Below are positions 1 to 61,294 of a stretch of DNA of 64,000 nucleotides, in pieces. This stretch comes from Asterionella formosa (lineage: Eukaryota): the NCBI GenBank assembly GCA_002256025.1, contig NKIB01012542.1:1-64000 (forward strand), in the 5' to 3' direction. Made by a program: the position numbers and the translations under genes. The notes under the pieces were generated by a model, which saw only the letters and a list, made by a program, of their open reading frames with translations, did not search any database and was not told where the DNA came from. Each line of letters begins with the position of its first letter. The first letter of the stretch is position 1.

Positions 1-225
1 TAACCATTTGATCTTGAATCAATCATCTAGTGGATTGTGGTACATGTTCCTAATCAGGTCACTAGAGGCGAAATATATTGACACTCATAACCTGATCAGG
101 AATCAGGAATCTCTATGTGTTTCAACTATAGGCATATATGCCATAGTATAGTCACTGACAAGGAAGAATAAACTGTAGCAATGGTACCATGGTACCTGGT
201 ACCTGGTACCACACCAATAGAAATA

Positions 226-323
226 CCACTAAGTTGAGGAAATTTTGCTGAATCTAAAACTTTAGCTACCTTTATCCGATATTAAATTGTATATATTTAA
301 GCAAAATGACCGCAACTTGCAGG
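226..323 (+). mobile_element. ~97-bp MITE (family A), copy 1
   Basis: TA|CCACTAAGTTGAGG...CCGCAACTTGCAGG|TA: imperfect TIRs with TA on both sides. The interior aligns by eye with 3895-3990 (reverse) and 4087-4182. Confidence 0.7.
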
Positions 324-732
324 TACTTGATGGCAAAGCAACCAGCAGCAAATCAAACTGCCATCCCAGTTTTTCTATATAAATATTATGTAAACAAAGG
401 ACACTCCTGGTATTACCAGTTTAATCAGAGAGGACTTGTCGAAGTTGATTGCTGACTGAGAAATAAAAGTAATATTAAAAAAGAAAACAGGAAGCAAAAG
501 TGAGTCTATATGACAAGCATAGATATGGAATCTGCCTTGGAAAACAAGCTGATTGATTGCACCAGCAATTCATAAAGTTGTGGAAGCTAGGAATAAATTT
601 TGTGTTATAGTACAATAGTTTGGATTTACTACCTATTTCCAAAAAATTACCATTTTTTTTAAGAGAAGAAACATAAACACATCCTTTAGAGATAAATTCG
701 AAAAAGTACCATAAATGGAATCTTAGGTGCCG

Positions 733-2835
733 TCTGACGAAAATTATGAAAGAAGGCTGGAACCTTGAAGGAAATGATGGAGTATTTTGGTGAAGTAATG
801 GATCACAGGAGCTTACCTTTGATATTCATATTCCAATCCCATATGGTGCTTTGTTTGTAATAGATATCCACTTTGATGCAAAAATCGGTGGAATCGGCAA
901 AGATGGGAATGTTGAAGTGACGATGCTGCAAGATCACAATAGGTTGAGGCACATGTCAGAAGAAATAATGAGGAAGACCACAAAAGGACTTAGGTGGGAA
1001 TTAAATGATAAAAGGTGGGAATTAAATGATAAATTTTCCATACCTTGTGAACCCTACTTGATCGGAGAAGCCAAGCAAAAGAATGGTCATCAATAATTGC
1101 CCAGATGTGATGGCAAACGTAAATGTAGAGCCAGTCCACATTGACATCATCAGTCCATAACAGAAAGGTGCAAATTCAATACTTATCCTTTTTAGCGTAT
1201 CGTGATGGTTGACTAGCTTAAACAGTTGAAGTTCTCGGATTTTACTCTGTTAAAAATCTAATGATTGAACGGGCTTGTGATCAGGAGTGGTATAAATGGA
1301 ATCAAAATGGCATATACTAAGTAAACTTTTAAATTTGTATAGTGCTTGAGAAAACAAGAAGACAGTAAAGCAAAATGCTCAAATTGAGACATCAAAGTTA
1401 AATATTGTTTTGAAATTCTCAGGCAGAGACACACTGCGGCGCAATCATTGGCAGAATTTTGGGTTTCGCAATAATCGCAAAGTGTGGTAGTGTGATGATG
1501 GCTCAGGCCAATTTGCCTATTAACGTTCTTTACCAATTGTTTCCAGATGCGCTCAAAACAATAACGCTCCTTGATGGGCGGATTGACTGATTTTTTGACA
1601 TTGATTGCAAGTATGCTTCTCTCATCGACACTAATGAGGAAGCAATTTAATTTTTGCGACTGAGCTACTATCGATTAGGAGCGAAGCAGGAACAGTAAGT
1701 TTTGCACAGAAATGAAAAATAAACTTATTAATTGTGGCACACCTTGCATGCTTAGTCGTGTTGACATCTACATGGGCTATGAAGGAGAAAGACAATGAGA
1801 CTTTCAGCGACAGGCTTACTGTACATGGATGTGAGGCAGTTGATGCATGAACAGGATTATGATTCAAGTACTACTACTGCAGCTCCAGTCACAGATGCAT
1901 TTACTATTAAAACTGCTATGATCATCATGGCTAGTATGAAGCAATGGCATGCTAGCCTACCGGATATGCAAGGAGCATTTCTGAATGGAATATTTGTTCA
2001 AAGAGGACAGTTGTAAATGAAGGTTTGACAAGCATTCAAAGGATGAAAACGCCAATAATTTTATGCTGAAACTGTTACAAACAAAATTAAGACATGAAAA
2101 CGTCTCAAACTAGAGTTTGGAAAATTGATACTTCTAATGAAATGGAAGTGGGCAGAAATGCAGAATTCAGTGCGAGAATTTTTGAGGTTCATGTTGATGG
2201 TGTTGATGAAGGGTCAAATCCAGGACTGTGTGACAGTATCAGTCACAAAAGCAGAGCTGGTGTGTGCAACACAGTTCACATAGGACAGCCATGTTGTACA
2301 CTATGAGAATTCAGGAGTCATTGTGATTACAAATTGCAAAACCAACAATTCTACATGTTGATAACCGAGGTGCAATGAATCTGGCTAACAACTGGAGTGT
2401 TGGTGGAAGAATAAGTTTTGTGGAGATCAGATATTATTTGCTGCTAGAATTGAAAGAGAAAAATTTGATTGCAATGAATTGGGTACCAACTGACAGCAAT
2501 TGTTGTGATCTTTTCACTAAGAGTTTGTCAGGACCAACTTTTGAATGGCATGTTCAGGTGTTTTGTGGTGACGATGATGTATCCAGATTCTTTCATGGGG
2601 AGGGTATTAGCGGTAGAAACATGATGATTGGAGTACAGTGTGTGACAAGTCATCGATGGGAAAGTCAAGGAGAATTAGATTTATTACAGTTGAGAACAAA
2701 TTATGTGCTCCAACTGATGGAGGTGGGATCAATGGAAATAATGGAAATATTTTCGGCATTGAAGCAAAGATTGGGAATAAAACATTAAATAGGCTCAAAA
2801 TCTAGGAAACAATGAATTGTTCGAGCCCTCAAACA
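733..2835 (+). mobile_element. Decayed Ty1/copia LTR retrotransposon (pol remnant, PPT and 3' LTR)
   Basis: Frameshifted fragments occur in copia order: GAG-pre-integrase (HNRLRHMSE...PCEPYLIGEAKQKN), integrase, RT (TWAMKEK..., APVTDAFTIK...DMQGAFLNG) and RNase H (NNWSVGGR...EIRYYLLLELKEK...DLFTKSL). PPT GGGGAGGG is at 2597-2604. The probable LTR is 2605-2835 (TATT...AACA, i.e. a mutated TGTT...AACA). Confidence 0.85.
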
Positions 2836-3894: not shown

Positions 3895-3990
3895 CGACAA
3901 GTTGAGGTCATTCAGGTTATACAAACAATTTAATATGGGATAAAGACAGCTAAACCTTTAGTTTCAGCACAATTATCGCAACTTGCTGGG
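3895..3990 (-). mobile_element. ~97-bp MITE (family A), copy 2
   Basis: The reverse complement aligns with 226-323. TA-flanked, with CAAGTTG/CAACTTG TIR cores. Confidence 0.7.
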
Positions 3991-4086: not shown

Positions 4087-4182
4087 CTGTGCAAGTTGCC
4101 GAAATTGCGCTGAAACTAAACATTTAGCTTTCTTTAACTCATATTTTATTGTTTATTCAAGCCAAATGACCGCATCTTGCAG
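4087..4182 (+). mobile_element. ~97-bp MITE (family A), copy 3
   Basis: TA|CTGTGCAAGTTGCC...AAATGACCGCATCTTGCAG|TA. Aligns with copy 1. Confidence 0.7.
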
Positions 4183-4502
4183 TAATGCATATTTCCTTCT
4201 TCTATGTAATGTTGTCAATGCTGTATAGATGGAAGGAATAACTATCTATTATTCCTCATCACCCCTGGTATTCCAGGGCAGTTTCGTACTGGTTGGTACA
4301 GATGATGCATACGGAAGAATCATTTGATGCATCGGTCCGTGTTACGTACGCACAAGTTGGTTTATCAAACAAATTAATTAATGTCAGTACTCTCTCCGAT
4401 GAGCGATCTTGGATCTGCTGTGCTCACCTTTTCACCAACAGGCAAGAACCAATCATTGCAGCTGTTTCCTTGAATAGCGAAGTCTTCAATTTCCTCACCA
4501 TA

Positions 4503-5531: not shown

Positions 5532-6605
5532 GCTGCTTTCTTCTACTTACTGCCAGGCAGTTAACACATTGATACTGGGCTCCTTGTGTGGCGTTTTTAT
5601 TCTCCTTGTGCTGAAATCAGAGAGTTTCAGCCATAAAATCGAGGCGTTTGGCCATTCGCACTGCTTTACATCTATGGATAGTCAGGTCACGGGACAGCGA
5701 CAAATGAATGCACGGAAAAGGATTTGATCCCACGTGCATGATATACATCTTCATACATTAAAATTTGTTTTTTTTAATATTGGGCTTTTGTCATATCATC
5801 GTCAAAAATTGGTCATGCACGTTTGGTGAAATGAAAACAGCCACCAAGGTTTTTGTTTTGTGTCTTCCTGGCACGACCACGTACTGGTGGTACCTGGTAC
5901 CAGCTACTCCAACCATATTACCGCTCAGCGAACTCGAGGGCTAGTCATCTACGTACAGACGTGAGTGTGTGCAATACCCCTGCACTGTGCTGGGACGTCT
6001 GAATCATTGATTCCCCATGAATCTACACAGCAAGTGTGTACCGGTACATTGGTGATGAGTGACAGTACCCTGGTACCTGGTACCGGTACCAGGCACCAGG
6101 GGTACTGGTACCTGTACAGTAAGTACTACCAGATACTATGTACACAGGTAGCACTGTTAACACTTCCTATGCACAGACAGACGTACAACAGTTTGTATGA
6201 ACATCAACTGCTGGTAGACTACCTGGTACCGGTACATGGTACAGACCGGAATGTACGGATGTTTTTACAACCCGATGCATACCGGCATGTCTGTGCAAAG
6301 AAGGCTGCGCCGAGGGTTTGGCCTAACTTTGTATTCTGTTTACAACGCACTCCCACCCGACGGCCGGCTTTTGATGTGACAAATGATGGATGCATTCGAA
6401 TTCGGGAGGGAGGAACATATTATGTGTGCTTGACAGCCCAATTGTTTTGCGCCTCTTTGTTTGCGTGCCACCTCTCTCTCTTCCTCGCTTGCTCTACCGA
6501 AGCGGCGTTCTCTGATTAGATTGATCACCTGCTGTACCCTCGCCGTGGATGCCGATGTTGATGCTGTAATCGGTTTTTAACTATCGACAGAATTCACTTA
6601 ATACA

Positions 6606-18119: not shown

Positions 18120-18400
18120 TAGTACCAGGTACCAGTACCTTGGTACCTGGTACTCGGTGTAGGTCCACTCTATTCATCGTCGGAGGAATCTATTGTTTTG
18201 GGGGTGTTTGCTTGTACTGTATCTTCTACCTGGTAGAGTATCTACCATATAGTACGCGCATACCGGTACCCTGGTACCAGGTACCTGGTACCTGGTAATC
18301 AGCAACAACATTTGCCATGCTGCCAGCTTGTATGGTCTGACACATCTATGGTACCTGGTGTACCTGGTATGTTGATCGTATTATTATAGGGTACCGGTAT
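18120..18400. repeat. GGTACC / TA-CC(N)GG-TA degenerate palindromic array (example of a window-wide family)
   Basis: e.g. CCGGTACCCTGGTACCAGGTACCTGGTACCTGGTA at ~18263-18297. Similar arrays occur at ~181-210, 6040-6240, 13830-13975, 20200-20400, 23240-23360, 28695-28745, 33525-33780, 38715-38830, 49440-49940, 53060-53200, 58400-58600 and 61060-61080. Confidence 0.9.
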
Positions 18401-23172: not shown

Positions 23173-23472
23173 GATGCATGATGACGATGACGAGTCAGAC
23201 TGCAACAATATGGGAGGGGAGAGGTAAGAATCCGACAACCTGGTACCCTGGTACCAGGAACACGTGTACATCACAGCAATACTACCTGGTACCGGTATTA
23301 CCGGTACTGATACCGGTTGTACCAGGGTACCAGGTACCTGGTACCGGTATGGTACCATGCAACGGCATTGCTTTTGCATATATACAAATACAGATATTTG
23401 TACTTTGTTCTCATCAAAATGCAATCATAATCTTTAGATCACAGTCAGTGCCTTTGAAGTGGTGGACGTACA

Positions 23473-25409: not shown

Positions 25410-26264
25410 GATTCCCCTTGTCTTAATTGCTTGAAATCCATATGCTCAAGATATATTGTTGTGGCAGCATGTATGTCATGATCATACTGATCCCGGTTTG
25501 CATTGAAATTTTATAATACTTTTGGGTGCTACAAAATTTTTTTTAAAGTGTGGAGAATATATTTTCAGTTTAAATCAAAATTAGCATGCTGTTGCATGAT
25601 CATTTTCAAATATTATGGTACCCTATCCAAAATGATAAGAACCCCCCCCCCACCTGCAGGTATATACAGGTACTGGTATATTTGTAGAATCCCTTCTGAA
25701 TGCACAGAAGGATGTGATGTATCTTAATTTCTTATACCTAGACTTAGTTGGATTGTTACATACTGGTGGTGGTACTGCGACATACGATTATTTTATTTGT
25801 ATCACGTATAAATGCACAGGTACATAATGGTTACTGTATAGACTCTCCAATACAGAAAAAAATTCTGAAACAAGTACCATATGAAACAAAGAAAATATAA
25901 TAGCAATATTTTCTAAAGAGCAGCAAGGAATCCACTGGTCAAGCTACATATTTCTCTGGGTTCCCTTTGGGGCCATGGCAAAAGAGCAAACACTCATAGC
26001 GCAGTGCAAAGGTACCAGCAGCAAACTGCCTGCATCATCATCCTCCTCCCTACTCAGTGCAACAAAAGCTGTAACTAGCAGCAATCTGATCACTGGCAAA
26101 ATCAAGAAAATACAAGCACTAATGATGGTGAACTACTACACTTATGATGATGTGGTGATGGTGCTAGGACCAAAATGAGAGACATTTGCAGTGAAGCTTT
26201 CCAAATCAATTGAAATAGCAAGAGACTATATTGAAACAAAAGAAAAAAAATCAAGAACTAATGG

Positions 26265-26370
26265 TGAAAGCCAAGCAATGACATGAGTGAAAAATAAAGG
26301 ACTACTGGCAAAAGCCAAGAAATGACATCAGAGAGCAATCAATGACAGCTGGCAAAAGCCAAGCAATTCC
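26265..26370 (+). repeat. Three degenerate ~42-bp direct repeats (core AAAGCCAAG.AAT)
   Basis: The core recurs at ~26268, ~26311 and ~26355, within an AT-rich non-coding, probably TE-derived region. Confidence 0.55.
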
Positions 26371-27525: not shown

Positions 27526-27852
27526 CCAGTAAAAAATGCATTGACCCACTGGGAAAAATTTCGAACTGGTTTAAAAATCACGTTTTTTTATGAAAAATCA
27601 TTCATTTTCTATTTCTTAAGCTCCAGAATGTATCTTGTGGATTTACCGGATGGAGTCATACTGTTAGTTCTCTACCGATTTGACGTCGATTCGTTAATTT
27701 AGGTCAAAAGTGGCGATCGGAAAAAAGTGAAAAGCACGGATTATCCCAAGTTTGGAGTTCTCATCTTATATTGTGTACAACGATGTATATAAATTTCTCG
27801 CATTTTGGGCATTATCCATAACCTTGACAACAATAATTTAGTAAATAAAAAT
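27526..27852 (+). mobile_element. Truncated tandem copy of the left arm of MITE family B
   Basis: Near-identical to 27879-28210. Starts TA|CCAGTAAAAAATGCATTGACCCACTG. Confidence 0.85.
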
Positions 27853-27878: not shown

Positions 27879-28698
27879 CCAGTAGAAAACTGCATTGACC
27901 CACTGGGAAAAATGTCGAACTGGTATTAAAAACACGTTTTGTTATGAAAAATCATTCATTTTCTATTTCTTAATCTTCAGAATGTATCTTGAGCATATAC
28001 CGGATGGAGTCATTCTGTTAGTTTTCAACCGATTGGACGTCGATCTTTCGTTAATTTAGGTCAAAAGTGGCGATCGAAAAAGAAGTGAAAAGCACGGATT
28101 ATCCCAAGTTTGGAGTTCTCATCTTATATTGTGTACAACGATGCATATAAATTTCTCGCATTTTGTGTCTTATCCATAACCTTGTCAATAATTATTCAAT
28201 AAATAAAAATTGATGAAATCCGGCGCAGCCGTGTAATGCCAGCATCTATGTAGGCAGACCATTATAATTGGTACGGAGTACCTTTTACCTGGTACATATA
28301 AATATGCACCCATGGCTGTGCACAAAACTGATACTGTACATCTATTGTACCTGGTACCAGGTACCGGTATCATGTATGGAGCATCATGCATTTTATGATG
28401 TCTTTTCGCTTTGAACCAAACAGGATAATCCGTGTTCACCAACGAATATAAAATTACTTTCAGGTATGCGAAAAATTTAATATACTGCATTGACCCACTG
28501 ATACTGAATTTTACGTCTAGATGTATATAAATATCTTCTGAACCATATGTTCAATTTAACTAGGAAAAGGATGCTAATGTACCGACGCCTTATGCCATCA
28601 ATACTTCCGAACAGATTTCAGAGAGAGGAGAGCTAAGTGTTAGTCGAAATAATCAAACGAATGGGATAAAACAGTGGGTCAATGCAGTTTTTTACTGG
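27879..28698 (+). mobile_element. ~820-bp non-autonomous TIR element (MITE family B, Tc1/mariner-like by TA flanks)
   Basis: TA|CCAGTAGAAAACTGCATTGACCCACTG ... CAGTGGGTCAATGCAGTTTTTTACTGG|TA. Full-length inverted homologue at 40186-40981. No coding capacity. Confidence 0.9.
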
Positions 28699-29012: not shown

Positions 29013-31755
<2,743 letters not shown>

Positions 31756-33472: not shown

Positions 33473-33869
33473 GGGTAAACGATAAAACCTGATCAGATGT
33501 TCATCAGTGTTGTCATGTTGGTTTCGGTACCAGGTATGCTACAGTTTGATTTGATATGTACATACATATTTCACGTGAGTGAAGCTATCGTTGCATCTTG
33601 CTTCCGCGACATCATTTTCTTATGTACTGGGACTGGTACCTTGGTTGCTATCGTAGCGATAGTATAGTATGTATTTTGCATCCCTGTTCCTGGTACCAGG
33701 TACCAGTACCTCCCAGTCTACCCTGGTGCCTAGTATGGTACCTACCTGGTACCAGGTACCATACTAGGTACCGGACGTGGTACAAATCGAATGAATCATT
33801 GCAACGCGATCATACTGGACCAGTTGCGTAATTTATCTGATTCATGACACTTTCCTTTCGCTCGTGACC

Positions 33870-37079: not shown

Positions 37080-37575
37080 TTCTGTATCACCCAATAATTT
37101 TAACTATTAACTATTGGAAGTATTCTCATTCAAGCGAGAAAAATGGCAGATGAGATGCACTTATGTAGCTAATATTTTACTAGATCCGACGAGGTGTAAT
37201 GACTGTCGAATCAGGGCAGAGTGAATGTGGTATATTTCACCCGGAAATGGGACTATTATCGGAATTTATTCAACCTAGTAAGAATGCATCCAGCACTGCT
37301 GCTTCCTTCCATCTACAGAAGTAAACCTGAAAGATAGCATTGATATTTAACCCAGTTGTTGAGGAGAGCTTCTTCAAGCTTGCAAAGGGGATGTTATCGT
37401 GAAGCTACACTTGAAAGAACAGGATATCAGAGGCCTAACTATAGTTCAAACTGCTTATTTTCTATTGAAGCTTAACGACGCTCACGTCCATGAAATATTA
37501 AATGCTAAAAACTATTTCAACAACGAAAGGGAACAAAAAAATTTGTCACTATGGTTTCATATCAAACCTAGTCCA

Positions 37576-38451
37576 TCATACCGCCCAATTGACATCTAAG
37601 ACGCTGCATTTCTCGTGGATGTCACGACCAATATCGCTAACAATCCCGAGTCTACGTCGGTTGGAACCCGAGCATTCTATGAAGCGAGGACCACACATTT
37701 TTTCGTCGCATAGCAGGCAATCGTTCAATCCTCCGTCTTCTTCATTATGGACCCCCATATCTCTAAAGAAATATTTGACCTTGATACAGGTATATTTGCA
37801 ATGTCTCACATTGCATTGGATATCGTCCACCCAGCAGTCCTCGCAAGGCTTGGTGAATCCAATTCTCTCTTGCAAGCATTCGTGCACCGCCTGTGTTCCT
37901 CCAGTGAATATGAGAAACGCGCATGCGGTCGAATCTGCCGTCAAGGTATTTGTCGTTTCTGCTTGAATGTCAATGTCGTGCAGGTTTGAACACTTCCCGC
38001 AGGACCCGCAGTGAGCGACCTTGTATCCATCCAAATGAGCTTCGTGTGCGATGGGAAAAGTGCTAAAATCAACCTGTGGATTAGTAGAAGTCGTTTCCCT
38101 CATGGCACAAACATTCGGTGTAGTGTAATAAGGCAACGTCGACGGTGCCAAATCGTAAGCTCGTTTTTCGATTCTGGCGCCAACGAGAACGATGCAAACC
38201 AGGAGTACGGTGAAAAATGACACGGTGACAATAACTCTGTATACCCATAGAAGGAAGCTGTTCCGTCGGTCGCTGTCGATGAACTTGAGTTCGTCCATGA
38301 CGGACGCAGCCTCAGTTGATGCCTCTGTTGATGCGACATCGTTGTCGTTGTTTTCGTGATTTGCGGCCTTGTGGCTGGCCAAGATGGAATCAGCAAGCTC
38401 CAAATCATCCAGGCTCACTGTGTAGTACCGTTGTGCCCTCAAACTCATCAT
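37576..38451 (-). CDS. Cys-rich single-pass membrane protein of unknown function
   Basis: One TM helix, then a domain with about 14 Cys (AHCGSCGKCSNLHDI, GFTKPCEDCW, CLLCDEKMCGPRF..CSGSNRRRLGI). Confidence 0.75.
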   Translation of the reverse strand: MMSLRAQRYYTVSLDDLELADSILASHKAANHENNDNDVASTEASTEAASVMDELKFIDSDRRNSFLLWVYRVIVTVSFFTVLLVCIVLVGARIEKRAYDLAPSTLPYYTTPNVCAMRETTSTNPQVDFSTFPIAHEAHLDGYKVAHCGSCGKCSNLHDIDIQAETTNTLTADSTACAFLIFTGGTQAVHECLQERIGFTKPCEDCWVDDIQCNVRHCKYTCIKVKYFFRDMGVHNEEDGGLNDCLLCDEKMCGPRFIECSGSNRRRLGIVSDIGRDIHEKCSVLDVNWAV

Positions 38452-39111
38452 GATGAATCAGAATGGAAGGACCTTGGGAGGACAAAAATGCTTTTCGGCA
38501 GCAGTTCTCTTTGTCAGTTGTGGTAAAATTTTGTTCCTTCGCGATTGCCTCGGAAAGAGTCGTGCCCGCAGATATACCTACCAGGATTACCGCATGATGT
38601 ATCAAGAATTTTTATACCTGTGATGCATTACCCCGTATAGTCTACGGGTATTTCTACACATGATACTTTTTTGAAACGCGCACCACGACCAAGCAACAGG
38701 CCCACGCTGGCGTCCTACCGGTACCAGAACATATTTCATGTATGCCTGATTCAATCACGCACCTGGTGAGAAACCAGGTTTCTCCAGTTCTTGTACCTGG
38801 TAGGAGTACCTGGTGCTGTACCTGGTTACCTTCCTCGTCCAGGACATTTGAAATAATCATATGGTAAGTTTTACACGAACAAATTTTGTTTCGTACAAAT
38901 ACATAATTTGACATCATACCAGTGTACTTGCTTTACCAGGTACAAGAACATGCAAAAGTAAGAAAGTGATAAGCACCTGATGGTTTACCGGTATTCTATG
39001 TCATAATAATGCATAAAAGACTCGCGCAGCGTAGCAATACATACCAATACGTTGATTGTCATACCGGTAACCAAGAAAGAGAAGCAACAACAAAAATGCG
39101 TTGGACATATA

Positions 39112-39757
39112 CCGTATACTTCATTGTCCTGGACCCCGATGTACACTGCCGTGACTGAATTTGACTGATTTTACTTCAGGGGGCCCAGGACAATCAAGAG
39201 ATTTCCCTTATAATGGACCTAAGTAAATTTCTTTAGTTATACGGGATAGCGAACATTTTTCTAAGATGTATTAATATGACAATTATTTCCGTCTTGAGAA
39301 AAATGAGAGAGTTCTTCACCTCGCAAGAAAAACGCGACTTCATGTTGTTATCGGCGATCTCAATTTTCGTTGTCATTATTAGTGTTATTACTTTACTTCT
39401 CTTACGATTGTATTTTCCATGTCGTTCTTAATACAGGTAGCAAGTAGCAAAGCGTCGTTCTCTATTTTCGTGGAGATAATTCGTATTTTCGTCATGGTCA
39501 AGGTTGCGACAACATCATGAAGGATTCTCCAGCTGCTCACAGCCACTGCCTGTCGTCTCTTGTGTTTTGTATGTACAAATGAATCGCAAAATGGTTGCTA
39601 AATTATTATATACTAGTGCCTACAAGGACAAAAAGAATTATAGCACGTTACTTTGTCTATGACAAGAAAATTATTGGGTGTTTGATTCCACCTCGAGAAA
39701 AATGTACAAGGGGGTCCAGCAACCATAGGGGGGGGTCCAGGACAATGAAGTATACGT
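39112..39757. mobile_element. ~645-bp non-autonomous TIR element (family C, pogo-like CCGTA terminus)
   Basis: 25-bp perfect inverted repeat CGTATACTTCATTGTCCTGGACCCC (39113-39137) / GGGGTCCAGGACAATGAAGTATACG (39732-39756). The left flank is TA; the right terminus is mutated. Confidence 0.85.
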
Positions 39758-40185
39758 TGTATCGGGACTTTTCCCAAAAAGGCTTGAAAACGAGAAAACT
39801 ATTCGTAAATTCAACTGCCCATTGACATTTGCACCACAATTGCACCACCGATTGCACCACTATCACTTAGAGAAACCAAAATGAACCATCAGACTACCCA
39901 TATATTAAATCCGTGCTTCGAGCTGCACTGCCGTAGTGATATTTTCTACATAAGATCACGATCAGGTTCATATAAGATATGTATTTTGTAGTAGCCAACG
40001 GCCGTAGGCTATCCGGTACATACCGGTACATCTAATGGGACATACCGGTACTAATAAAATATTGCAAGCATTTTGTATCATATATATAGGTTACAACCGG
40101 TAATGAATTTTGAACTAAGGCACTCCTTGCTGACGTCAAATTGTCGCTGCACCACTTTGCACCACCACAGACCTACCTACTGGTA

Positions 40186-40981
40186 CCAGTAAAAAACTGC
40201 ATTGACCCAGTGTTCTATCCCATTCATTTGATTATTTCGACTAAAACTTAGCCCCCCTCTCTCTGAAATCTGTTCTGAAGTATTGTTGGCATAAATATAA
40301 GGCGTCGGTACGTAAGCATCCTTTTCTTAGTTAAATTGTACCTCTGGATCAGAAGATATTTATATAAATCTAGACGAAAAATTCATTCTCAGTGGGTCAA
40401 TGGAGTATATGAAAAATTTTATATTCGTTGATGAACACGGATTATCCTGTTTGGTTCAAAGCGAAAAGACATCATAAAATGCATGATGCTCCATACATGA
40501 TACCAGTACATTGTACAGGTACCTGTTACCAATCCTGGTACCAGGTACTATAGATGTATTAGTTTTGTCCGCAGCCATTGGTACATGTTGGAGTAGTACC
40601 AGGTACCTGGTACCAGGTTCTCGGTACCACTTACCCTACATAGATACTGGTATTACACGGCCTCGCCGGGTTTCATCAATTTTTATTTACAGAATTATTA
40701 TTGACAAGGTTATAGATAAGACATAAAATGTGATACATTTATATACATTGTTGCACACAATATAAAACGAGAACTCCAAACTTTGGATAATCCATGCTTT
40801 TCACTTTGTTTTTGATCGCCACTTTTGACCTAAATTAACGAAAGATCGACGTCCAAACATTCTGGAGATTAAGAAATAGAAAATGAATGATTTTTCATAA
40901 CAAAACGTGTTTTTTATACCGTCCTCAGTGGGTCAACGTAGTTCGAAAATTTTCCCAGTGGGTCAATGCATTTTTTACTGG
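40186..40981 (-). mobile_element. MITE family B, inverted copy
   Basis: TA|CCAGTAAAAAACTGCATTGACCCAGTG ... CAGTGGGTCAATGCATTTTTTACTGG|TA. Reverse-complement homology to 27879-28698 along its length. Confidence 0.9.
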
Positions 40982-40989
40982 TACCGGTA

Positions 40990-43900
40990 CCAACTAAAAA
41001 CTGAGAGTCAACGTTTCAGTACTCCTTCTTTCGCCTAATATTATCGAAGTTTCTTAAGGTTGCTGCATTTGAAACCCTAGGCAAAAATTAAAACATTGCT
41101 TAGGGTTGCCAAAATTCCCTGGAATTAAGAATTTAATCAGCTATTTTTGAATGACGTGATTCCATTTGGAATATTTAAATCAGTGGAAATTTGTGAATAC
41201 GTACATAGATTCCTTGTCGAAATTGCTAAATATATATAAACACTCTTAGTCACTGAATGTATGTATACGCTAAAAATACGATCAACATGTATGCATGGAC
41301 ACTCTATACTTCGATTAATGATTTTATATGCTATGCATTGAATCTGTTCGAAATATTCAAATCGTTTAATATAGATATACACATTTAGATTCTAAATCGC
41401 TTCATGTGCATACACCAGTACTACAATCTATACTCCGATTGATGACTATCATGGGTAATGTATATGACCCGGCGGCTCGGCAAATATTTGAAAGTGCACT
41501 CAAGGGAGCGGTACACATATGTCCAATGATGATCATCAACTGGTACCAGGTACCTGTCGTGAATATAGCACCGGACTGTCAATTCGCCCAAGAAAATGTT
41601 ACATGTTTATCCAATGTGGCCGGCATGGGTTTGCAAGACCTCGCAAACCAGGCCAATCAAACAGAGGAATGTAATTCACGTTCACCAATCATATTATATA
41701 TGTGGAAGCGGGCACTTACAATGGAACTTTTTCGACAGGAGATTTTAGGACTAAAAATTCCGGCACACGACTATCATTCCGATGATGACGTTTCGGCACT
41801 TAATAATTCTGATTCCGATATTTTGGTGACCGTAGAAAAGGCCGATTTTGTCGAGTTTTTTTGACGACGATAGCTAAACGTTGGCTGGGTCTGACGGCGA
41901 TTTAGATACATAGGTAACTATCAAATAGCATCAGTATATAACTTCTGGCGAGAAACTGCAGAAAGGAACTTCGGTTTTTTACTACGCCAAATAAACAGAT
42001 TTCCCCCGAAATTTCGAGTCTTTTTAGCCTAGTTAAAAAACCGAAGTTCCTTTTTGCAGTTTCTGACCAGATCCTATATACTGACGATATATAGAGTGGA
42101 CCTACACCCCTACTTTGTCCGAAGACTGTATGTAAGCATATGGAAAGGGTGTGTATTGGTGAAAGCTCCGTTGAGCGTTATACATATTCAATTTGTATTT
42201 GAAAAGTATGTGTTTGATTAGTCTGACTGAATATTTTTTATTAACCCTACCTCGAGCTAGGGTTTCAAATGCAGCAACCTTAAATGATAAAATTCGAACC
42301 ATATAAAAACCTTATTGTTGTCGATAGAACGGGGATAGCTATCACTTGATCAGTTCTAAAGTAGAACATGCAGTTATGGAGATCTAAGCCATTCAGTTTG
42401 ACCCATTTCGACTCATAACGTTGACTCTCAGCAGTACATATTTTTTAAATGTAGACATGAAGTTTTTTACCCCCAAATCATTCTTTTTAGGTTGTCGATT
42501 GTTACCACAAAAACTATTCTATTACTTTTGTTGATCCTATAATTATCAGTACCAGCTACCGGTGACAGGTACAAGGAAGGTCTGGTAATCAGTGAATTGC
42601 GCGCACTATATACTACAAATTCCATGTAGCAGCCAGTTTCAACCTACTTCATTGGAAGTCTGACCGGCTCACCAATTTCGAAGAGATTAAAAATCTCAAA
42701 ATATTTCCATGTATTTACACTACCTGTAACCATTATAAAGTTTCAAATGGAAAAGCGCTGCCACCTTTCACAGCAGAATCGCTGACTACCAACTTCAACT
42801 TACTGACTGTGGTTTTCTTGTTGCTAACTGCTGACTTGATTTGCTGAAAATCTGAAATATTTGCTGAATGCTGACTTCATTTGTTGACTACTGACATGAG
42901 TTCACTGACTGCTAACTTCAACATGCTGACGTCAAGCAAGCTACTTTGTACACAGGAAGAGACCAACTACCGGCTCTGGTGTATGAATTGTGTTTAATTT
43001 TCATGTTTAAATAACGATGGAAATACATCTTTTTGTTGTTGAGATACTAAAAGCGATGCTTTCTTTGTTCATACCATCGGGGGTACTCCATTCAAGATAA
43101 TAAACTGTGAAATAGACATTGATGCATAAGAAAGTCATTGCTATCTACTTGTTCATATTTCTACCACTATGTACCGGTACTATCGTAAAAATGCTGACTT
43201 CAACTTGCTAACTACTGACTGCGGACTTCGTTTCGCTAACTGCTGACTTGATTCACTAAAAATTTGAAAAAATCGCTGACTGCTGACTTCTTTTGCTGAC
43301 TGCTGACTTCAAGTTCATTTTGACAATTAAACAAGTAATGGCTTAACATCTACTACTATGTAAACAACTATTTAAAGAATAACTTCTAAGTGGCAAAAAA
43401 TTTAGGGGATCGACAATTTTTTGGAGTGTACCCCTGCCTTTTTTGCATGTGAATCGATGAACAGAAAACGAGATACCTGCACGCTATGTGCGCTGTTTAC
43501 CGGACCTTTCAGGGTTTTAAGTGCCGATCATAGGAGTACTAGTAGCATGTTCATCAAGTCTTTGTTCATACCTCGCATATCAATCACTTCAAGTTCTCAT
43601 CTTTCCGGTGGGTCTCCTCTTGTTTCAATTCATTTCACAGGTGATTTTTGTGATTTTAAGAAAAATCCCGGTATGTTGTGTTTCAGGTAGTCACGCCAAG
43701 ATGTCGTATCTGATGTTCTCCATTTAGGTAGAGGAGAATGCAAAATGATATCGTTATATATTTTACCGTAGCAAAACAATCTATTCGGACACTAAATGAA
43801 TATACCTACAGAAATACTCTCTTGTAACTGTATACATATATAAAAAGTGATGCCAGCTGAATGGAGTAAAACTTAATTTAGCTTTTTTATTCCATTTCTC

Positions 43901-44090
43901 GTCGACAGTAACCTTTGGGACCAAATACGGAAGTAACACTACTAGCTAATTGACGAGATCAAAGCTCTATCATTATTGGTTAGTACATAAATCGCTACAA
44001 CATTGCTTGAATAATTATGTTCGTATCTAGCATATTTAGCCCAAAACGCGAATTTACTCGATTTAACGTTGACTCTCAGTTTTTAGGTGG
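40990..44090. mobile_element. ~3.1-kb TIR element (family D) with nested internal inverted repeats
   Basis: 26-bp TIRs with 1 mismatch: TA|CCAACTAAAAACTGAGAGTCAACGTT (40990-41015) and AACGTTGACTCTCAGTTTTTAGGTGG|TA (44065-44090). A third partial TIR lies at 42417-42431. No transposase was recognised. Confidence 0.8.
42780..43316 (+). repeat. Two ~130-bp direct-repeat blocks built of GCTGACT units (42780-42935, 43193-43316)
   Basis: Many (T)GCTGACT(T) heptamers; the two blocks align with each other. Confidence 0.75.
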
Positions 44091-46104
44091 TACCTGGTAC
44101 CATCCTACCGGTAACTATGTTACTGGTACAAGGTACCAGCAGATGTTGAAATTGTGCTGACCCTAAAACATGAGCTATCTTTATCCAAATTATCTCCTCA
44201 ATATTGATATGTTGGATAGCAAACAATTTTCAGAGGTTAAGAAATTTCTAAATGCGTTGATAACAAAGTTGTATGGTTGACACAATAACTTTGAAAATTT
44301 CACTCAAAACCAACCTTATTGGTTGTACTTTCATTTATGGCTTCAACAGGTACTACATTTCCGTGCCTATGCAGTAACAAGTGTAAGTAATGGTCTTGCT
44401 ATGGACAATCTAATTCACATTCCTGCAGAGGATGATGTTGCCAAGCTCCCTGTTCAACGAAGCAAAGGTAGAAAATATGGCAGCTCCCTGTTCAACGAGG
44501 AAAAGGTAGAAAATATGGCGGCAATGAGTTTGAGAACACATCCAAACAAGTGGTCGATGTTCTTAAAGAACTTTCAAAAGCAAATGAGCGCTGTACACAA
44601 ATGATAGTTGCCTCTCAAATATCCAATGCAGAGTTTGCTCGAGCATCTTTTCTTGTAAAACGAGAGAAGAAAATAATGGATGTTGTGAGTATGTACCGCG
44701 AAAAGTTAAAGGAAGCTTGAAGTGAAGTATCAAGCAATGAAGTGTCACAAAATGTGATAGTGAAGAGTATCAAGAGAGTGTCAGTTTTGTTGAATTTGTT
44801 GAAGCCAAACTTTTTGAAGCTATGGATGTACTGAACAAGAATTCTGTAGCTCTCATAAAAACAGCTGAAGAAATACAATTAATCATAATTAGGTTAACAA
44901 TTATATTTTTACTTAGTTCTTGTTATTACCTAGTTATTCCTTCCAGTTATAGTTTGTATGCCAAATTAATCCTATTTCAGTCTGTTCATGCTGTTGGCAC
45001 AACACATTTGCAGGAGGTTGCTTAAACCCGTTGTTGGTGACAACATCAAGAATAATAATTTGCTGAATCTGTGATGAACTTTGCACTAAATCCAACTTCC
45101 TGACAGTTGGAAGAAAAGCCCAACCAAGAGGAGCATTGCTTGGGCAATGGATCAACAAGCTTCAACTAGTCAGAAATTAAATTCCATTAGCAAGTTCTTT
45201 CTTTTTATAAGCATCTATGAGTAGGCAAACATTGTGTAAGCAGGCACAAGCAGAAATAATTGCGACTGATTTCTTCATCCGCAGGATCCTCCATTTATTG
45301 GTGAGCCATCCAAACATCATCTCAATTCTAATGCGTAGTTGTGAAAGGAATTACTAGTTGTATGCATCTTTGTTTGTTGATTCCCTTTGACTTCCAAGAT
45401 TTGGACAGAGCACTTGATCAGTCAATGTGTAAACAGCATCATCTGCTTTGTAGCTATTGTCCTGGACGAAGGTTGGATACAATCTGAAAACGTTTTTTTC
45501 TTTCAAATGCCTTCTGATCTGGACATTTTCCTGGTGTCACGACACCAAAGTATAGGAAACAACAATTGCTGTTCCAAAAAGCTTGAACATTCAATCCATA
45601 TGACATATAATGCCCAGACCAATATTGCTGCTTGAGGGAAGCCATCACAATCCTTTTTTCTTGGTTTAGAAATAGGCTGTAAATATCCATCTATAGCACC
45701 AATGCATCCACGAAATAGTTTTTGCTCGCTTTTTTCAAGGAATCCATTCATCGCTGTTTGTTTCTCCTTGTTTGTTGTTGTAGGGAATTTTATTGATAAT
45801 GCTGTGCAAGAGTTCACCGCATCAAGGAATTTTAGTGATGGCATAAACAGATGGATAAGAAACTCCATAGACATGACGAATGTCTATGAGTTTTCTGCCT
45901 GTAAGCCAGCGAAGTACAATGGCAAGGATCAACTCAGGATAAATATGCTGATTTGAGCTGTATAAACTGGAACTTGCATTTGATTTGACAACATAAACTG
46001 TGATGGAAAGTCGAAGGAGTTCCAGTAGTTGATTGTTGAAAGCTTCAAGAGACATGCGAACATGCGATATTCACAATGAAATCTATTCTCCTGAAGAAGC
46101 TTTG

Positions 46105-49100
46105 CATCTAAGCCGCATATCACTACGCGAAGTGACCATCATGTATATAAGCCTAGTTGATTTTGAATGGATCACATGAATTACTTGAATACATCAAAAT
46201 GCTCACTTGAATGTATCTATATATTATCTGAATACATCACGTTAATTATTTGATCAGAGTATCATGCAAGCATTCCTGATCATCACTATATTACGTGATC
46301 ATCTTCACATAATTATTTGAAATACTTCACTTAATTCTGTAATTTAGTTCACATTGCCTTATAATTTTGTTCTCGTAATTCTATAATATAGTTCAAGTAA
46401 TGTATTAAATGTGTTAACGTAATTCTGCAATTTTGTTCACGTAATTTAAAAGTACTATCAAATATATTTATTACTAAATCAACTACTACCCGTATTTCAC
46501 ATTACATGGGAAACAAATCTCGATATGAAATCAAACAAAGCAGTTCTTTCAGAATGGCATCTTCAGTCTTGAGAAGGCAGGCATTATGAGACGTCTATAA
46601 GGACAATGCAAGACAAACAGAAGCCGTTCATTTTGAAAAAATAATTATTAATTCTTGAACAGCAGGCATCATGGTGCGAAATTGCAACAGGAATGCATCA
46701 CACTGACTTCCTTCTTGTCCTTGAAATGACTTCTTCATTGACCTGCAACAATTTACATAAACACAGTGTGTCAGTAATTCATTTATTAGAACTCCTAGCA
46801 ACAGGAGAAAGCAACACACGCATGTGCTATTCAACTGTTTCACGAAGCAGTCAAATTGACAGCAAGACACCGGCATTCTTAGCCACCAGGCAGCACCGCA
46901 ACTCACTGATGCATTCAAAATAATGCACCTGTTGTGAAATGGACGGCTAAAATGTAAAATAAATTTATAGAACAATAACAAAAGCGTGTGATTTATCGCT
47001 CGCTCTGCTGATGTGATGAAAAAAATGAGGATTAAGCTTACCTTAGCTAGTAAAATCTTCTATTGTGGGTCTCCATATTGCATCATTTCACCTTCTATCA
47101 CTCCTGCTTTCAGAAAAACACTCCTTTTCTGAAAATGCCTGCTCAAATGTCAAATGAATGTTGAGAATAGCCAGCAGCATATCATTATGAATTATCAAAA
47201 AAGCAAGAAAAAATATTACCATAAAAGCATCCATTGCGGACGATCTTAATGTTGCATCATTCCACCTTTTGTTGGTGCAACAAACCATACTATGTGAGCT
47301 GGCTGATAAAAGATTTGTTTATAGTGAGGCAGGTGAAAATCTGGAAGGGGGATGCTAGTTATAAGGGTCGTCCCCATGTTGAAATTAAATTGTTCACAGT
47401 GGCGTTGATTGTTGGTGTTTTTATGAATTTAGAGGGTCAAAAATCCTGGCGCAGCCATGACTTCCTCTTTGTACCAACAGAACCTACAATCTACACAAAA
47501 AAATCTGGCGCAGTCTTGCTTACAATTTCGCCGGGAAAATTTTCCGGGGCTACAACTGTGACTTGAACAAATATGACAAGAGGGAGAGGACACAGCCAAT
47601 AGTTACTACTAATTGCATATGCACTGGATGAGCTACCATTAGCCTCGTCCTACTATAGTAAAAAAATACGCCTAGACTTTCTATTGAAAACAATCAGCTG
47701 ATGAGTTAACTAATTCACTTGCATGATGAAACTTTAATCTGTTTGTGTCTTCCTCAATTCTGTGTGAGTCGTACATTCAGAGCATTGTAGCAACTGCGTG
47801 GCAACCCATCGGTCCCATGCTTGTTCCGCCTAAAAAAAGCTCTTGGATCCCTCTAGTGTCATTGACTCCATATGACGTTTTTCTCCTTCTCAGTTCATCT
47901 TCTAGAATGGCTTCTGTTACTGATTTCACTCCATCTGGCCCTAATCGGTTTCCAGTCAAAAACAGTTTGGTCAAAGCGCACCTCTCCTGATCCCATCAAC
48001 CAACGCCATGGCTCCTTCTCCCCGCATGTGATTCCCTGCCAAGTAGAGCATATGCATGGCAGATCCAAACAAAGCACGTGCCTATGATCTAATCCCATCA
48101 CCTCCGATCCAACAATCCCAAAGCGCGGTGTGCTGAAATCCCGACAGCCGACGTATTAAAACATAACTTTGTTGCCCAAGTTGTTGTAACCTGGTTTGAG
48201 AATGAAGATTTGAATTCTGCAGTAGGGCCACTTTGACTAAGCGTGCGTCCGATGACTGAAATCCTCGCTGTGATAATCAATCTACCAATCATGAGTACGG
48301 ATGGAGTATTTGAGGGAAAAAGCGCCAAGGGGTTAGAACAACTGAGCCACAACACAGCGCAATAAGACAACAACACGCACTTGGGGTTCTTGTACCAGTA
48401 CTTAACTTGGTTAGCTATCGTCACATGAGTGCTTCTGATAAGCGCTGAAGGACACTCTCTCGAGTCGGCGTTGCTTTGGCGTAGTGGTGCGACTTCAATT
48501 TGCCAATTTTACATTGACAATGCGCACTTACTTCAGCCTAGAGCGGCGATGTATCAATTTGGTGCATGAGGATGGCGAAAACTCTTTTCGCTGTCATTTC
48601 CTAGCCGATTCATACCTTCTCGGCATATGTACCACCATACGTTACTTGAGTTGTCTTTTGCAATGATTTATCCTCTAAAAAAATTTTATCATGAACTTTT
48701 AAAATATGTAGTTGTAACATCAGCTAGTTTTGTCTTGGAAATCACTGTATGATTCTGAACCATCACATGAAAACCTCAAAGAGAAGTCTTGCTCACTATA
48801 ATAGTTCATATCATTTATGGGAAGTGCACAAATATAAGCTGTAGTTTGTCCATGCATGAAATAAGACAGCACAAATATCCTTACTATTTCACAAATAAAG
48901 ATGCATGTAGTAAATGAATCAGCCACAAGAGCAGGATATTAGTTGAACTTTGAAATGAATTATTAGAAACATCAACTAATTCAGTCTCGGGTTCAAAGTT
49001 CATTGTGAAAACTTCACATGAAACCATTAAAAATTCACATGAAACCGTTAAAAGTAACCTTTTTTACGGGAAGAGTGGCATTAATTCATGTGAAGTACCA

Positions 49101-49161: not shown

Positions 49162-50265
49162 TGTGACATTTTCATTCCAGTCAATTCATTGATGCTCCCA
49201 TTTTGGCATTCGCACTGGCTTCGAGTTTTGTTCATAGGACTCCAAAAATGATAATGCAACTGCTGGAATTAACAAAAAGCTCTGTTTTTCTGCTTCTATA
49301 TCAAGATTGTCAATGACATCCCAACTGTCAGTTTCTTCCGGTCGATTTGTCATTGTCAATACAGTAATGATAATGTCAGACACGTGCATTCTGAATAAAG
49401 ATAGCTAAATATTTGGTATGAGCAGAAATAACGCAACTGCTTGTACCAGGTCACCTGGCTTGGTAATCTGCCCTCAACCAAGGGTCACATTGTGTCATCG
49501 CTAATCAGACAGCCAACAACACCAATGGATACCGCTACCTTACCGGTAGCCTACCAGGTACCACAATTATTTAGTACCTGGTACCTGGTACCTGGTACCT
49601 GAGTACCACCAGTGCAAACATGGTTGCAAGCGTAACAAAATACCGGTACCCGTACCAGGTACCAGTTAAGCGTACATATGTATCACTTCTAAATATGATC
49701 ATGACGACTACCGGTACCGTACTGTGCGTACCTGTAACCTCCGGGTATGTTCAGTTGACGTCACCCAAGACCACGCAGAAGGTTATCTTCGTTTCTTACA
49801 CGTGGTATTGCCTCCACCACGCAAACACCAGCAGCGCGTTCCCCTGACGATGCGGAGGAATCATCGTGTTTCTTTTTGTTATTTATTTTTGCTTTACATA
49901 CCGGTAGCTATATATCGTAAAAATCAATCTATACATACCGGTACATAGATAAAATAAGAATGGCTGATTTAATATCACATGTAGCTTTATGCAGGTGAAA
50001 CCGTATACAGTGGAGTACCAGTCTATCTCCCAAAATGTTATTTCGTCATGCATGTGACGAAAACGCAGCATGTTGGCGAAATCGAAACGAAAAGAGGTCA
50101 AAATCGATCGATCAACATTAGTCCTGATCAATTTCATTCTATTGTGAATTGCTCATCCTTTTTTCTTGTCGCTACCGCCGCAACTACCGTAGTACGCTTC
50201 AATTCAATTACCGTCCTTCCATTCCAGTCGAAAGGAAACGAACGAGCGAATAATCGATCCAGACG

Positions 50266-58275: not shown

Positions 58276-60186
58276 TGACTGCACTATTTGAACGAGGGGA
58301 CTTCCTGGTATTGATTGAAACACTTCAACTCCCGACAACGATATGATCCAAGATAATGGCACAGGTTGACAGATTGATCAAATTTGGTTTTATGCATTTA
58401 AGTACTGGCATACCGGTACCTGGTACCTGGAGCCAATATCAAACAAGGTGCTTGTGCTTTGTCATACCAGGAACCTTATCGGTATGAAAACTCAATACAT
58501 CAGCCATACATATACTGGTATATAAATGTGCCTTTTTGCAGTGGCCGCTCGTCTGTAGCATACTTCAAGGTGTACTGGTATGTAAGTACAGTACCCAGGT
58601 ACAAAAAATGGCGCGCAACATGACGAGAAAGTTAAGCAATGGCTGATATGTAGCAGCTACATAGATTAACGTGCTGGGGCTAATGCCACAATGAAGGTCC
58701 GGTGAAACACGTTTTAAACTTAAAAAAATATCAAGCTAAATATCTCGATTAGCGAACCTTCTAACGTACTGGTATCGTACTCTGCTTGTACACCATAAGC
58801 ATGGCTGATGTGAACGTACGTAGTGGCAACGTTGCTTATACTGCAAGTAATTGTAAAGGCCGGGTCCATTACTTGTTGGTACATATTTTACGATGGTTTA
58901 TTTATTTAGAGAAGTAGTCTACAAGTGTTGCCAATGCTAACTTCGCATGAAACTGAGTGACTTACCGGTTTACTATATTTCACAGGAACATCAGAACTTC
59001 CAAAATGTTGTAGGGAACATTATGCAGATGCAATTTATGTGTATGGCTTATATGTTGCTATTTGTAAGTTGTTACCATGCAGTAGGAAAAAGTACCACTA
59101 AGATTGTATCAAGTTCAGACGAACTTCTGGATACTGTAGGATCTACCATCACTGTTGCTTACTAGTCCAGCAGCATTAATGGGGCACTACAATATGCAAT
59201 AAGAATGTAAATTAGTAGTTTAGTATGCTAAAGCAAACCTAAATCAATGCATGAATGAATGCCTTTGTTAGATCTATCAATAACTAAGAGGAGTATCAAC
59301 ATTCAGCTTGCTCTGCCTTGACAAGTTAGCAAACAATTTTTTCAAATTTTGGAGTATAAAATGTTGGTTAGACCTACTCTACCCATGCTATTCTCCATTC
59401 GAGGGATCAAATTTAAAAAAGAATCTCTACTCCAGTTTCCATGATGTGGATATGGAATTCACAATGTTGGTATAGGAATATTGAATTAAGTTTGATTATT
59501 ATGATTTATTGTAACCAATACATATGTCGGAAAAAATCAAAGCAAGTTCATCCACATGTCTTCATGCACAACACAAGCAAACATTGAGGAATCTACTAGT
59601 GACACTGAACTAGTTGCAGATATGGATATTGTTGATCATGATTTGCTTGCAGGGAGATAATGTGATGCTAGTTATGGAGGAACCAGTACTGGTCATGGTA
59701 ATCACCGTGAAATAATTCTAAAAATATTCTTACAATTCGTGGATATAATTTCTAATTGTCACATACCAGTTGCTGAAGCTGCTCACAAAGGGCCTGAAGA
59801 GAACTGGTTGTATATTTTACTAAGTTTGGATGCCTGAAATCGTTTTTACTATGACTGCAGATAATTACTTACAATCTTGAATAGAATGCTTTTTCTGAGA
59901 TGATAGATAGAAAGTGATTATTCCCAGTAATGATACAATTCATGCATTGGTCAAAACTATTCATTGTGATATTATAAGGCATGATGTAATTTGAATTAGC
60001 TGGAAAAACTCAATTCCAGGTATAAATGTTGAAGCATCCAAGCATCGTTTCCATTATTTATACCGATAATCAAAACAGGAAAGGGGCAAAAATAATTTCT
60101 ACAGTAAAATTTACATCTTTCCTCTCGCGAAATGAGGTCCAGGATCATTCCACATGTACCAGCCATGCCTAAAGATAGACAGACTA

Positions 60187-61061
60187 CCAGTAAAGAACTG
60201 CTGTGACCCACTGAGTTCTCCTATTCGTTTGATTAGTTCGACTAAACCTATTCCATGTCTTGCGAGAATCAAACTTGCATGTCTCTTTTTAACCAAAGGA
60301 GTCAGCAGGTTGTGGATCTGTCGATATTTTCATTGAAGGTCGAGGTACTGAGATACGAACCCTTTTATGTGGACAAAATTTGCCGGTAATGGGTTACAGC
60401 CGTACTTCAATTTTTATATATAGTTGTATATAATTTTATGTACCGTTACGATCACGGATTACCCCGTTTGGTTTTCGCAAAATTATTTTTAAGAAGAATT
60501 TTCGTATCCAGATTTATCCCAGTACCTGCTGAACCAGGGTACCACCGGTACATACCGATACATCACAATCACACACAAATGCATCCAGCCGTCAACATAT
60601 ACCGGTATGTACCGGTTTCGGTGCACACTTTCTTCGGATTGTTGTACGGGGGCTGATGGTGGGTCGACCTTGGCGCGCCCGTTTATGCATGCTGAAGTTA
60701 CTTAATCAATGTCAGGGAATAGGGATATGTTATGACAAGAATCATAGGCAAAATAAATCGCATGCGATATTTTTGTATCTAGTTGCGTATATCACAAAAC
60801 AATGAATCCTTAAAACATGGGGTAATCCGTGTTCTGGCAATATTTTCGTCGATTGCACTTTTCAACCAATATTTTAGGAGAGACAAATTGCTATAAAGTT
60901 ATATCTAATGGCATATCCTTAAAGTGTAGATGGTCAGGATTTGGGTCGAAGTTTTAAAATTAACATATTGGCATTTGGTGGGGTTAAACCGTGTTTTTCT
61001 CCTGTTCAGTGGGTCACAGCGGTTCCAATTTTTTTAGTGGGTCACAGCAGTTTTTTACTGG
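60187..61061 (-). mobile_element. ~875-bp divergent member of MITE family B
   Basis: TA|CCAGTAAAGAACTGCTGTGACCCACT ... AGTGGGTCACAGCAGTTTTTTACTGG|TA. The subterminal ATTCGTTTGATTAGTTCGACTAAA resembles 40222-40246. Confidence 0.85.
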
Positions 61062-61294
61062 TACCAGGTACAGGTACCGTTACGTAGTTATTTAGTCATG
61101 AGCATCATGAAATATCAGCATCGATGTTAATGTTATATGAAATTATAATAATTGTTCACCATCATCACCATGTCAACGAGAGCGCAATATACATAGTAAA
61201 CTGAAACCGCACCACTTACAATAAGTCAGCCACTCTGATCCGGTCCTGAACCATTCCACGCAATCGATTCGATCTGATTCATTCAAACACAACA

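Follow-up and report, generated by a model that had tools for sequence, protein, structure and literature searches.

INTRODUCTION

Tc1/mariner transposons duplicate the TA dinucleotide into which they insert, and on excision they leave a footprint made of TA, 2-3 terminal nucleotides of the element, and TA. We take the footprints of Sleeping Beauty and Minos to be among the closest known systems to what we describe here, which is the non-coding DNA of a stretch of 64,000 nucleotides from Asterionella formosa (positions 1-64000 of contig NKIB01012542.1, in a 68.4-Mb eukaryotic assembly of 15,436 contigs; the window, for short). This DNA is studded with short CC...GG units separated by TAs, many of them stacked into arrays. 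We find that the units are footprint-shaped, that slippage is not their origin, and that one group of transposons preferentially inserts at the sequence GGTACC.

Excision of the pogo element Passer leaves footprints of 0-4 bp, according to the available excerpts of PMC9976928, and a Tc1 footprint, taCATGta, is cited in those of PMC3520976. The A. formosa units resemble the footprints of Tc1, mariner, and pogo in having a TA duplication and a few terminal element bases between two TAs, and differ from them in that the scars are fixed and stacked, and in that the preferred target of one family is the footprint junction. At a Triticeae beta-amylase locus, a Stowaway element is reported in part of PMC1925063 to have re-inserted beside an earlier footprint. 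As far as that excerpt goes, the two cases would have in common that elements enter and leave the same TA more than once, with the new element beside the old footprint; the A. formosa case differs in being genome-wide rather than at one locus, in a measured sequence bias that is recreated each cycle, and in arrays of up to six units.

Similar sequences have been interpreted in another way in oomycetes, where the excerpts of PMC3520976, PMC3597505, and PMC10031896 present TACATGTA and TACCGGTA as promoter motifs or transcription-factor sites; the first of these papers names a Tc1 footprint origin and, in the portion available, rejects it because of the abundance and conservation of the motifs. 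Going by the same excerpts, the oomycete motifs are, like the A. formosa units, abundant TA-flanked palindromes in upstream DNA, and TACCGGTA has the very sequence of our commonest unit. The difference is one of reading, transcription-factor sites there and footprints here. The excerpt of PMC7325037 gave no diatom family of this kind under the terms searched. Our search found no literature on footprint-built arrays or on the DD37D transposase family introduced below; it excluded most subscription papers and Repbase, and a prior description is possible.

We read this as a form of a known process, the footprints of TA transposons, notable for its scale, its renewed target, and its testable link to stramenopile "promoter motifs". 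It traces an entire class of short repeats to mutation, by a route other than slippage and without selection, presents a transposon whose own activity renews its target site, and preserves traces of far more past transpositions than there are surviving elements. For the oomycete upstream TA-flanked palindromes, a footprint origin becomes testable by the polarised-indel test used here.

ABUNDANCE AND ARRANGEMENT OF THE UNITS

An earlier inspection of the window from its letters alone (the sequence-only reading) had described non-coding DNA full of TA-separated CC...GG units, and the counts bear it out. The hexamer GGTACC occurs 79 times in the window, with 6.7 or 15.2 occurrences expected under first- or second-order Markov models. 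Units with a TA on each side exceed expectation by 20- to 160-fold for CCAGG/CCTGG (CCWGG for short; 43 vs. 0.26 expected), CCGG (31 vs. 0.31), CCAG/CTGG (26 vs. 1.24, a count that includes the termini of the B elements described below, which start TA-CCAG-TA), and CCAGGG/CCCTGG (7 vs. 0.06). CCG/CGG occurs 12 times, with 2.95 expected.

As a genome sample, we use 399 kb from seven long contigs, which is not a random choice; 278 kb of it lie outside long open reading frames (ORFs). These 278 kb contain 161 CCGG units (1.4 expected), 133 CCWGG (1.5), 92 CCAG/CTGG (7.3), 49 CCG/CGG (13.7), and 12 CCAGGG/CCCTGG (0.3). That is about 1 footprint-like unit per kb of non-ORF DNA, in arrays that reach six units, and extrapolating from this sample of long, non-random contigs gives ~73,000 units genome-wide. 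In the same non-ORF sample, CCWGG units are mostly in arrays, with a GG or CC neighbour in 105 of 133 cases (79%), and CCGG units are mostly solitary (40 of 161, 25%). The mixture of unit types and orientations noted in the sequence-only reading is also real: of 113 adjacent pairs in the genome sample and the window together, 80 are of different units and 33 of identical ones, and adjacent CCWGG pairs show no orientation bias (24 same, 19 opposite).

In the genome sample, units are about 3-12 times less dense in long ORFs (4-12 times for the three main units). This depletion would be expected if the arrays were selected promoter or chromatin signals and the elements simply gathered in open DNA, and similar motifs are indeed read as promoter motifs in oomycetes in the excerpts cited above (PMC3520976, PMC3597505, PMC10031896). 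The sequence-only reading supposed that the arrays are shared safe sites; selection alone can account for the scarcity of units in ORFs. New units appear inside decaying transposon copies, where promoter selection is unlikely, and the target bias of the elements is base-specific at positions -3/-4. We consider a promoter or chromatin origin quite improbable; the arrays could still have been co-opted later as promoter signals.

Some units do occur in the long ORFs of the genome sample, with 12 instances of TACCGGTA (0.46 expected) and 5 of TACCWGGTA (0.49 expected). The 6-nt scar TACCGGTA is in-frame and may give genes two extra codons, with the proviso that some of these ORFs are spurious.

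NEW UNITS APPEAR AT LONE TAS

In order to see units arise, we aligned 187 sequences (162 kb) that belong to ten repeat families, leaving out an eleventh that has 3 copies. Indels were polarised with the majority state as reference and compared with 14 preset words derived from CC...GG. The alignments include 155 insertions of 3-12 nt, of which 53 have at least 5 nt. Almost half of the insertions of 5-12 nt (25/53) place a unit plus TA exactly at a TA: 15 CCGG, 4 CCG/CGG, 3 CCWGG, 2 CCAG, and 1 CCCTGG. Shuffling the inserted letters yields a mean of 0.25 and a maximum of 2 in 1000 trials. Of the 29 deletions of 5-12 nt only one fits a unit plus TA, and that one removes a tandem copy (Fisher p=2e-5 vs. 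insertions). At two sites, different copies carry different units at the same position. The contexts of the new units are also telling: none of the 15 CCGG insertions is at GG|TA or TA|CC, and three of the four CCWGG/CCCTGG insertions are at TA|CC.

The alternative that these data address most directly is that a 6-8 bp repeat grows by replication slippage or unequal exchange, and that elements merely favour the resulting GGTACC. Runs of identical units exist (49575-49597 is an example), 33 of the 113 adjacent pairs are identical, the sole unit-type deletion is a tandem copy, and the loci L052 and L053 differ by array units. But an identical unit that could act as template adjoins none of the 25 new ones, L038 and L054 differ by four different units, and orientations are mixed. 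Because 25 of 53 insertions are a unit plus TA, none beside an identical unit, and because orientations run 24:19, slippage is not the origin of the units, which are footprint-shaped. The polarised-indel test largely refutes slippage as the origin, and we regard that account as very improbable; runs such as 49575-49597 suggest that slippage adds some units, as a secondary contributor at most. Stacked excision footprints, which the sequence-only reading had already favoured over slippage, fit better, and a footprint origin of the units is very probable.

Other short sequences enter in the same manner. Among three-base insertions, 13 of 73 are TA-C/G-TA, which the genome sample contains 832 times (500 expected); among four-base insertions, 4 of 29 are TA-GC-TA, with 149 occurrences in the sample (50 expected).

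ELEMENTS WITH CCA ENDS

The window has two families of TA-flanked elements with terminal inverted repeats (TIRs) that end in CCA...TGG, B and D (Table 1), with the boundaries that the sequence-only reading had assigned to them. Their outer flanks in the window are GG|TA in 7 of 8 cases. Genome-wide, the CCA group (B, D, and relatives) has 685 exact ends, compared to 2 for a control. Of 98 distinct ends 94 are TA-flanked, and of these 66 have GG|TA, compared to 6.8% of background TAs; the bias is specific to the bases at -3/-4. Paired elements with TA on both sides are in GG-TA-CC in 13 of 19 cases (background 1.3%) and in a half site in another 5 (background 11%). The expected enrichment of GGTACC at element flanks is therefore present in the CCA group. 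The sequence-only reading had proposed it for CC...GG elements in general, which does not hold for the pogo families C and F described below (GG|TA in 0/16).

Empty paralogs (L102, compared to filled L166, and L007, compared to L023) have a single TA where the filled ones have two, that is, the CCA group duplicates TA. Comparison of L093 and L016 shows an insertion directly after a unit. As an example of how busy a site can be, one position inside a B-type element is found in three states: an empty GG|TA|CC in L007, filled in L023, and in L025 with one CCAGG unit more and another element. At 3 junctions among the 98 ends, a single TA serves two elements; two further ends are one unit away from another element, and the single unit between B2 and D in the window is a further trace of junction landing. 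Roughly 0.2 such ends would be expected, a figure that clustering of elements would raise.

We can rule out an alternative description of B in which the target duplication is GTAC or TAC and the ends are CAG...CTG, because the C/G is invariant while the outer bases differ between sides. Nothing but repeat matches came up when we looked for an allelic copy of 26500-46400. Next to B1, positions 27526-27852 are a tandem duplication of its left third plus flank (91% identical to 27879-28210); the outer flank is as in B1, with one CCAGG unit fewer at the junction, which may be a loss here or a gain in B1.

A DD37D TRANSPOSASE

Elements of 2.9-3.5 kb with CCA-group TIRs contain a transposase-like gene (L141, L153, L166, and others). 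One of them, L190, has the exact B TIR and shares with B1, in addition to the TIR, 285 bp at 86%; two others, L178 and L188, have D-like TIRs. A transposase with these TIRs, of the kind that the sequence-only reading had proposed to look for, is present in the genome. Window element D has no blastn match to L178 or L188 at E 1e-5, and that these would be its partners is suggested by shared TIR bases only.

The transposase has 144 matches in the genome, with a 779-codon open frame retained in L176, a locus without located TIRs, and the proteins are about 740-970 amino acids long. Three aspartates (D272, D421, and D459) are invariant in 42 homologs, with a DD37D spacing. None of the 42 CCA-group proteins has a Pfam match over the cut-off, DDE_1 included (one reaches E=0.085). 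The predicted structure (pLDDT 85) is closest to those of SETMAR, Sleeping Beauty, and Mos1, with Mos1 as best match (Z 12.8, root-mean-square deviation 3.8, 263 aligned; Foldseek E 9e-4). By language model, the protein has clusters of pogo proteins as its nearest neighbours, the first from oomycetes (atlas score 0.95), and the best ten named hits are all DDE_1. The DDD spacing and motifs align with those of the local family C and F pogo proteins, and its profile gives no significant match to those of the local pogo proteins (hhalign probability 0.5 and 1.2). A sequence search of solved structures gives two weak capsid matches only, and the named homologs are hypothetical proteins of Fragilaria crotonensis. 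Judging from the predicted fold and these comparisons, the DD37D protein is an IS630-Tc1-mariner (ITm) transposase that presumably works in a pogo-like manner. It may belong to the pogo superfamily, from whose DDE_1 transposases it differs in its DD37D spacing, its length, and its lack of Pfam matches. We propose this family, missed by Pfam, as a candidate for a TA transposase whose preferred target spans six bases.

Metagenomes contain 79 loci of the DD37D family, with CCA ends in some and CCG in others. The CCG-ended members L241, L245, L253, L255, L264, L266, and L268 belong to lower-GC hosts and have CCG/CGG/CCGG-type flanking units and no CCWGG. Over 14 low-GC contigs (12.8 kb) we count 0 CCWGG, 9 CCGG, and 20 CCG/CGG units, where a TIR could be called on only 7 and element termini account for some of the counts. 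This comparison of units and ends across hosts is at best suggestive.

POGO ELEMENTS WITH CCGTA ENDS

The left end of family C in the window is where the sequence-only reading placed it (39112); it reads TA|CCGTA, and the family has no GG|TA preference. L084, which has a DDE_1 domain, shares its TIR and internal sequence with family C, and L081/L086 are a second CCGTA-ended family, F. In L084 and L081 a DDE_1 transposase with DD35D spacing is located between TA-flanked TIRs, in keeping with the pogo superfamily (DDE_1 plus HTH_Tnp_Tc5; DD35D in Passer). DDE_1 matches the genome at 93 places, and a DDE_3 search of the genome gives no match. Family C probably seeds arrays and does not extend them.

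Another TA-flanked pogo element, L062:297-2628, has CAGTG ends. Its footprints may account for two further types of unit that exceed expectation, CAG/CTG (82 vs. 36) and CA/TG (420 vs. 212).

A PROPOSED TWO-STEP MODEL

We propose that the arrays would be stacked excision footprints of TA-duplicating (ITm) transposons, built in two steps. First, CCGTA pogo elements would insert at TAs with hardly any selectivity, and their scars would be solitary, of the form TA-CCGG-TA or TA-CCG/CGG-TA; CpG decay may have turned some CCGG into CCAG/CTGG. Second, CCA...TGG elements moved by the DD37D transposase would insert preferentially at TAs with GG before and CC after. Each scar edge or element end would provide half of this site, and each unit junction all of it. 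Insertion of a CCA element would copy the target site to both ends, excision would add a CCWGG-type unit, and the arrays would therefore grow and remain attractive. Later on, the family A element would insert into the middle of CCWGG units.

The shape and polarity of the insertions, the TA duplication, the target bias, and the presence of the transposases are directly observed. Solitary CCGG, arrayed CCWGG, and the contexts of new scars are what follows if pogo seeds anywhere and CCA elements extend scar edges. We infer excision as the maker of each unit, the assignment of families to units, and the overhang lengths. The full self-renewing model is, in our view, likely.

Several observations weigh against the model. 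New CCWGG-type insertions caught number only 4. The empty and filled sites show a single-TA duplication, but we found no pair with an element in one copy and only its footprint at the same TA in another, and reads from four other runs over 24600-44500 are swamped by paralogs. Over 28673-29098, the contigs of X6 and X8 have 14 and 15 gap letters, whose exact location is not given and from which we draw no conclusion. No element was found with ends that match the common TA-C/G-TA and TA-GC-TA insertions. Given GG|TA, a full unit is present upstream in 9 of 18 cases for B (p=0.04) and 4 of 19 for D (p=0.82), against a background of 28%; thus, the bias may be for the hexamer and not for arrays as such. 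The unit CCATGG, the expected fill-in product of two CCA overhangs and one of the array units in the sequence-only reading, does occur as such, but only once in the window and 0 times in the 278 kb. The ratios of CCAGGG/CCCTGG to CCCAGG/CCTGGG (12:0 and 7:1) are unexplained, and no CCACGG class exists to match the CCAC ends common among the 100 ends listed. The overhang model is therefore incomplete. Of 14 CCA-ended metagenome elements, 12 lack a CCWGG unit in what little flanking sequence they have, and the difference between CCA and CCG ends does not reach significance among contigs on which a TIR was called (p=0.10; small samples, hosts unknown).

A uniform 4-nt overhang as a general rule is ruled out, since CCAC ends are common and yet CCAC/GTGG (9) and CCACGG (0) units are rare.

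Could abortive or hit-and-run transposase reactions, or some form of repair, write the units at TAs with no stable element ever in residence? The ~73,000 extrapolated units far outnumber the some hundreds of elements, the GC and C/G units are unexplained, and an element-to-footprint pair has not been seen. On the other hand, units match element ends, their contexts match the target biases of both groups, and the L007/L023/L025 site combines genuine insertions with a unit in a single place. We find this explanation improbable, and prefer stacked excision footprints.

More broadly, we can imagine a self-feeding ratchet in which pogo elements seed sites, a DD37D lineage that has evolved to recognise the junctions made by its ends and scars extends them, and the units are in turn colonised by a third superfamily, with tens of thousands of scars as the commonest short non-coding motifs. 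Other stramenopile TA-flanked "promoter motifs" (TACATGTA, TACCGGTA) would share that origin and spell the ends of resident transposons. This wider proposal is tentative, and we lean slightly against it as a whole.

FAMILY A INSERTS INSIDE UNITS

The sequence-only reading took family A for another TA-flanked CC...GG element. It is instead a miniature inverted-repeat transposable element with a 3-bp CWG duplication, which inserts inside CCWGG units. Family A has 884 exact ends. Among 29 paired copies, 16 have a direct CWG repeat as the 3 bases next to the TIR, and in 1 these bases match in inverted form. A CCWG-prefixed pattern served to choose the loci of 16 of the 29, but the far-end repeat is outside that pattern. 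CAG and CTG are both found with the same internal orientation, and there is no TA duplication directly outside the TIRs. Because of the direct repeat and of the occurrence of both CAG and CTG in one internal orientation, the apparent CC...GG ends of A are target DNA plus the 3-bp duplication. The target is CCWGG in 11 of 16 cases, and in 7 the whole TA-CCWGG-TA unit. The possibility of A as a source of CCWGG units through asymmetric ends is ruled out by the CWG duplication in the paired copies.

To the extent of the available excerpts, family A shares the CWG duplication with NuwaI (PMC4482050) and the CCWGG target core with Harbinger3_DR (PMC3016246). Unlike in those two, its targets appear to be scars of other transposons. 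A few loci were covered by a tblastn search with both ITm proteins and by a list of ORFs, and no transposase of A was found in them.

OTHER FEATURES OF THE WINDOW

Table 1. Arrays and transposable elements located in the 64,000-nt window
Feature	Positions	Strand	Remarks
Array, three units	185..208		CCATGG, CCTGG, CCTGG
Family A element	230..319		~88 bp; 3-bp CWG-type duplication; decayed on left
Family A copy	3898..3985		
Family A copy	about 4091-4184		further decayed
Array, three different units	6066..6088		CCCTGG, CCTGG, CCGG
Array, five units	18261..18297		CCGG, CCCTGG, CCAGG, CCTGG, CCTGG
Array, four units	23320..23349		CCAGGG, CCAGG, CCTGG, CCGG
Partial fourth B copy	27526..27852	+	tandem duplicate of B1 left end
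Arrays outside B1	27862-27878 and 28699-28744		
B1	27879..28698		non-autonomous; CCA-ended; GG|TA|CC site
Array inside B1	28348-28369		
Cluster of arrays	33694..33758		
Family C element	39112..39757		pogo-type, non-autonomous, CCGTA-ended; right end (~39757) decayed, flank not GG|TA
B2	40186..40981		CCA-ended
Single unit between B2 and D	40982..40989		TA-CCGG-TA
D	40990..44090		CCA-ended; GG|TA|CC site
Array, three identical units	49575..49597		CCTGG; most slippage-like in window
B3	60187..61061		CCA-ended; half site AC|TA|CC

The genes of the window are compact and of diatom type, and the sequencing runs that contain its DNA are mostly freshwater metagenomes. Nested in D, at 41054-42283, there is a 1.23-kb non-coding TIR element with TTAA/TAA flanks, which we take to be Harbinger-like from its end pattern; it has at least 40 copies of about 90% identity, with many new footprints among them. 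Positions 45503-45883 of the minus strand contain a decayed ORF with no Pfam match at E 0.01 and with what we believe to be the motif of Harbinger/ISL2EU transposases. An ORF at 2327-2788 of the plus strand has motifs like those of Ty1/copia retrotransposons, presumably of their RNase H end.

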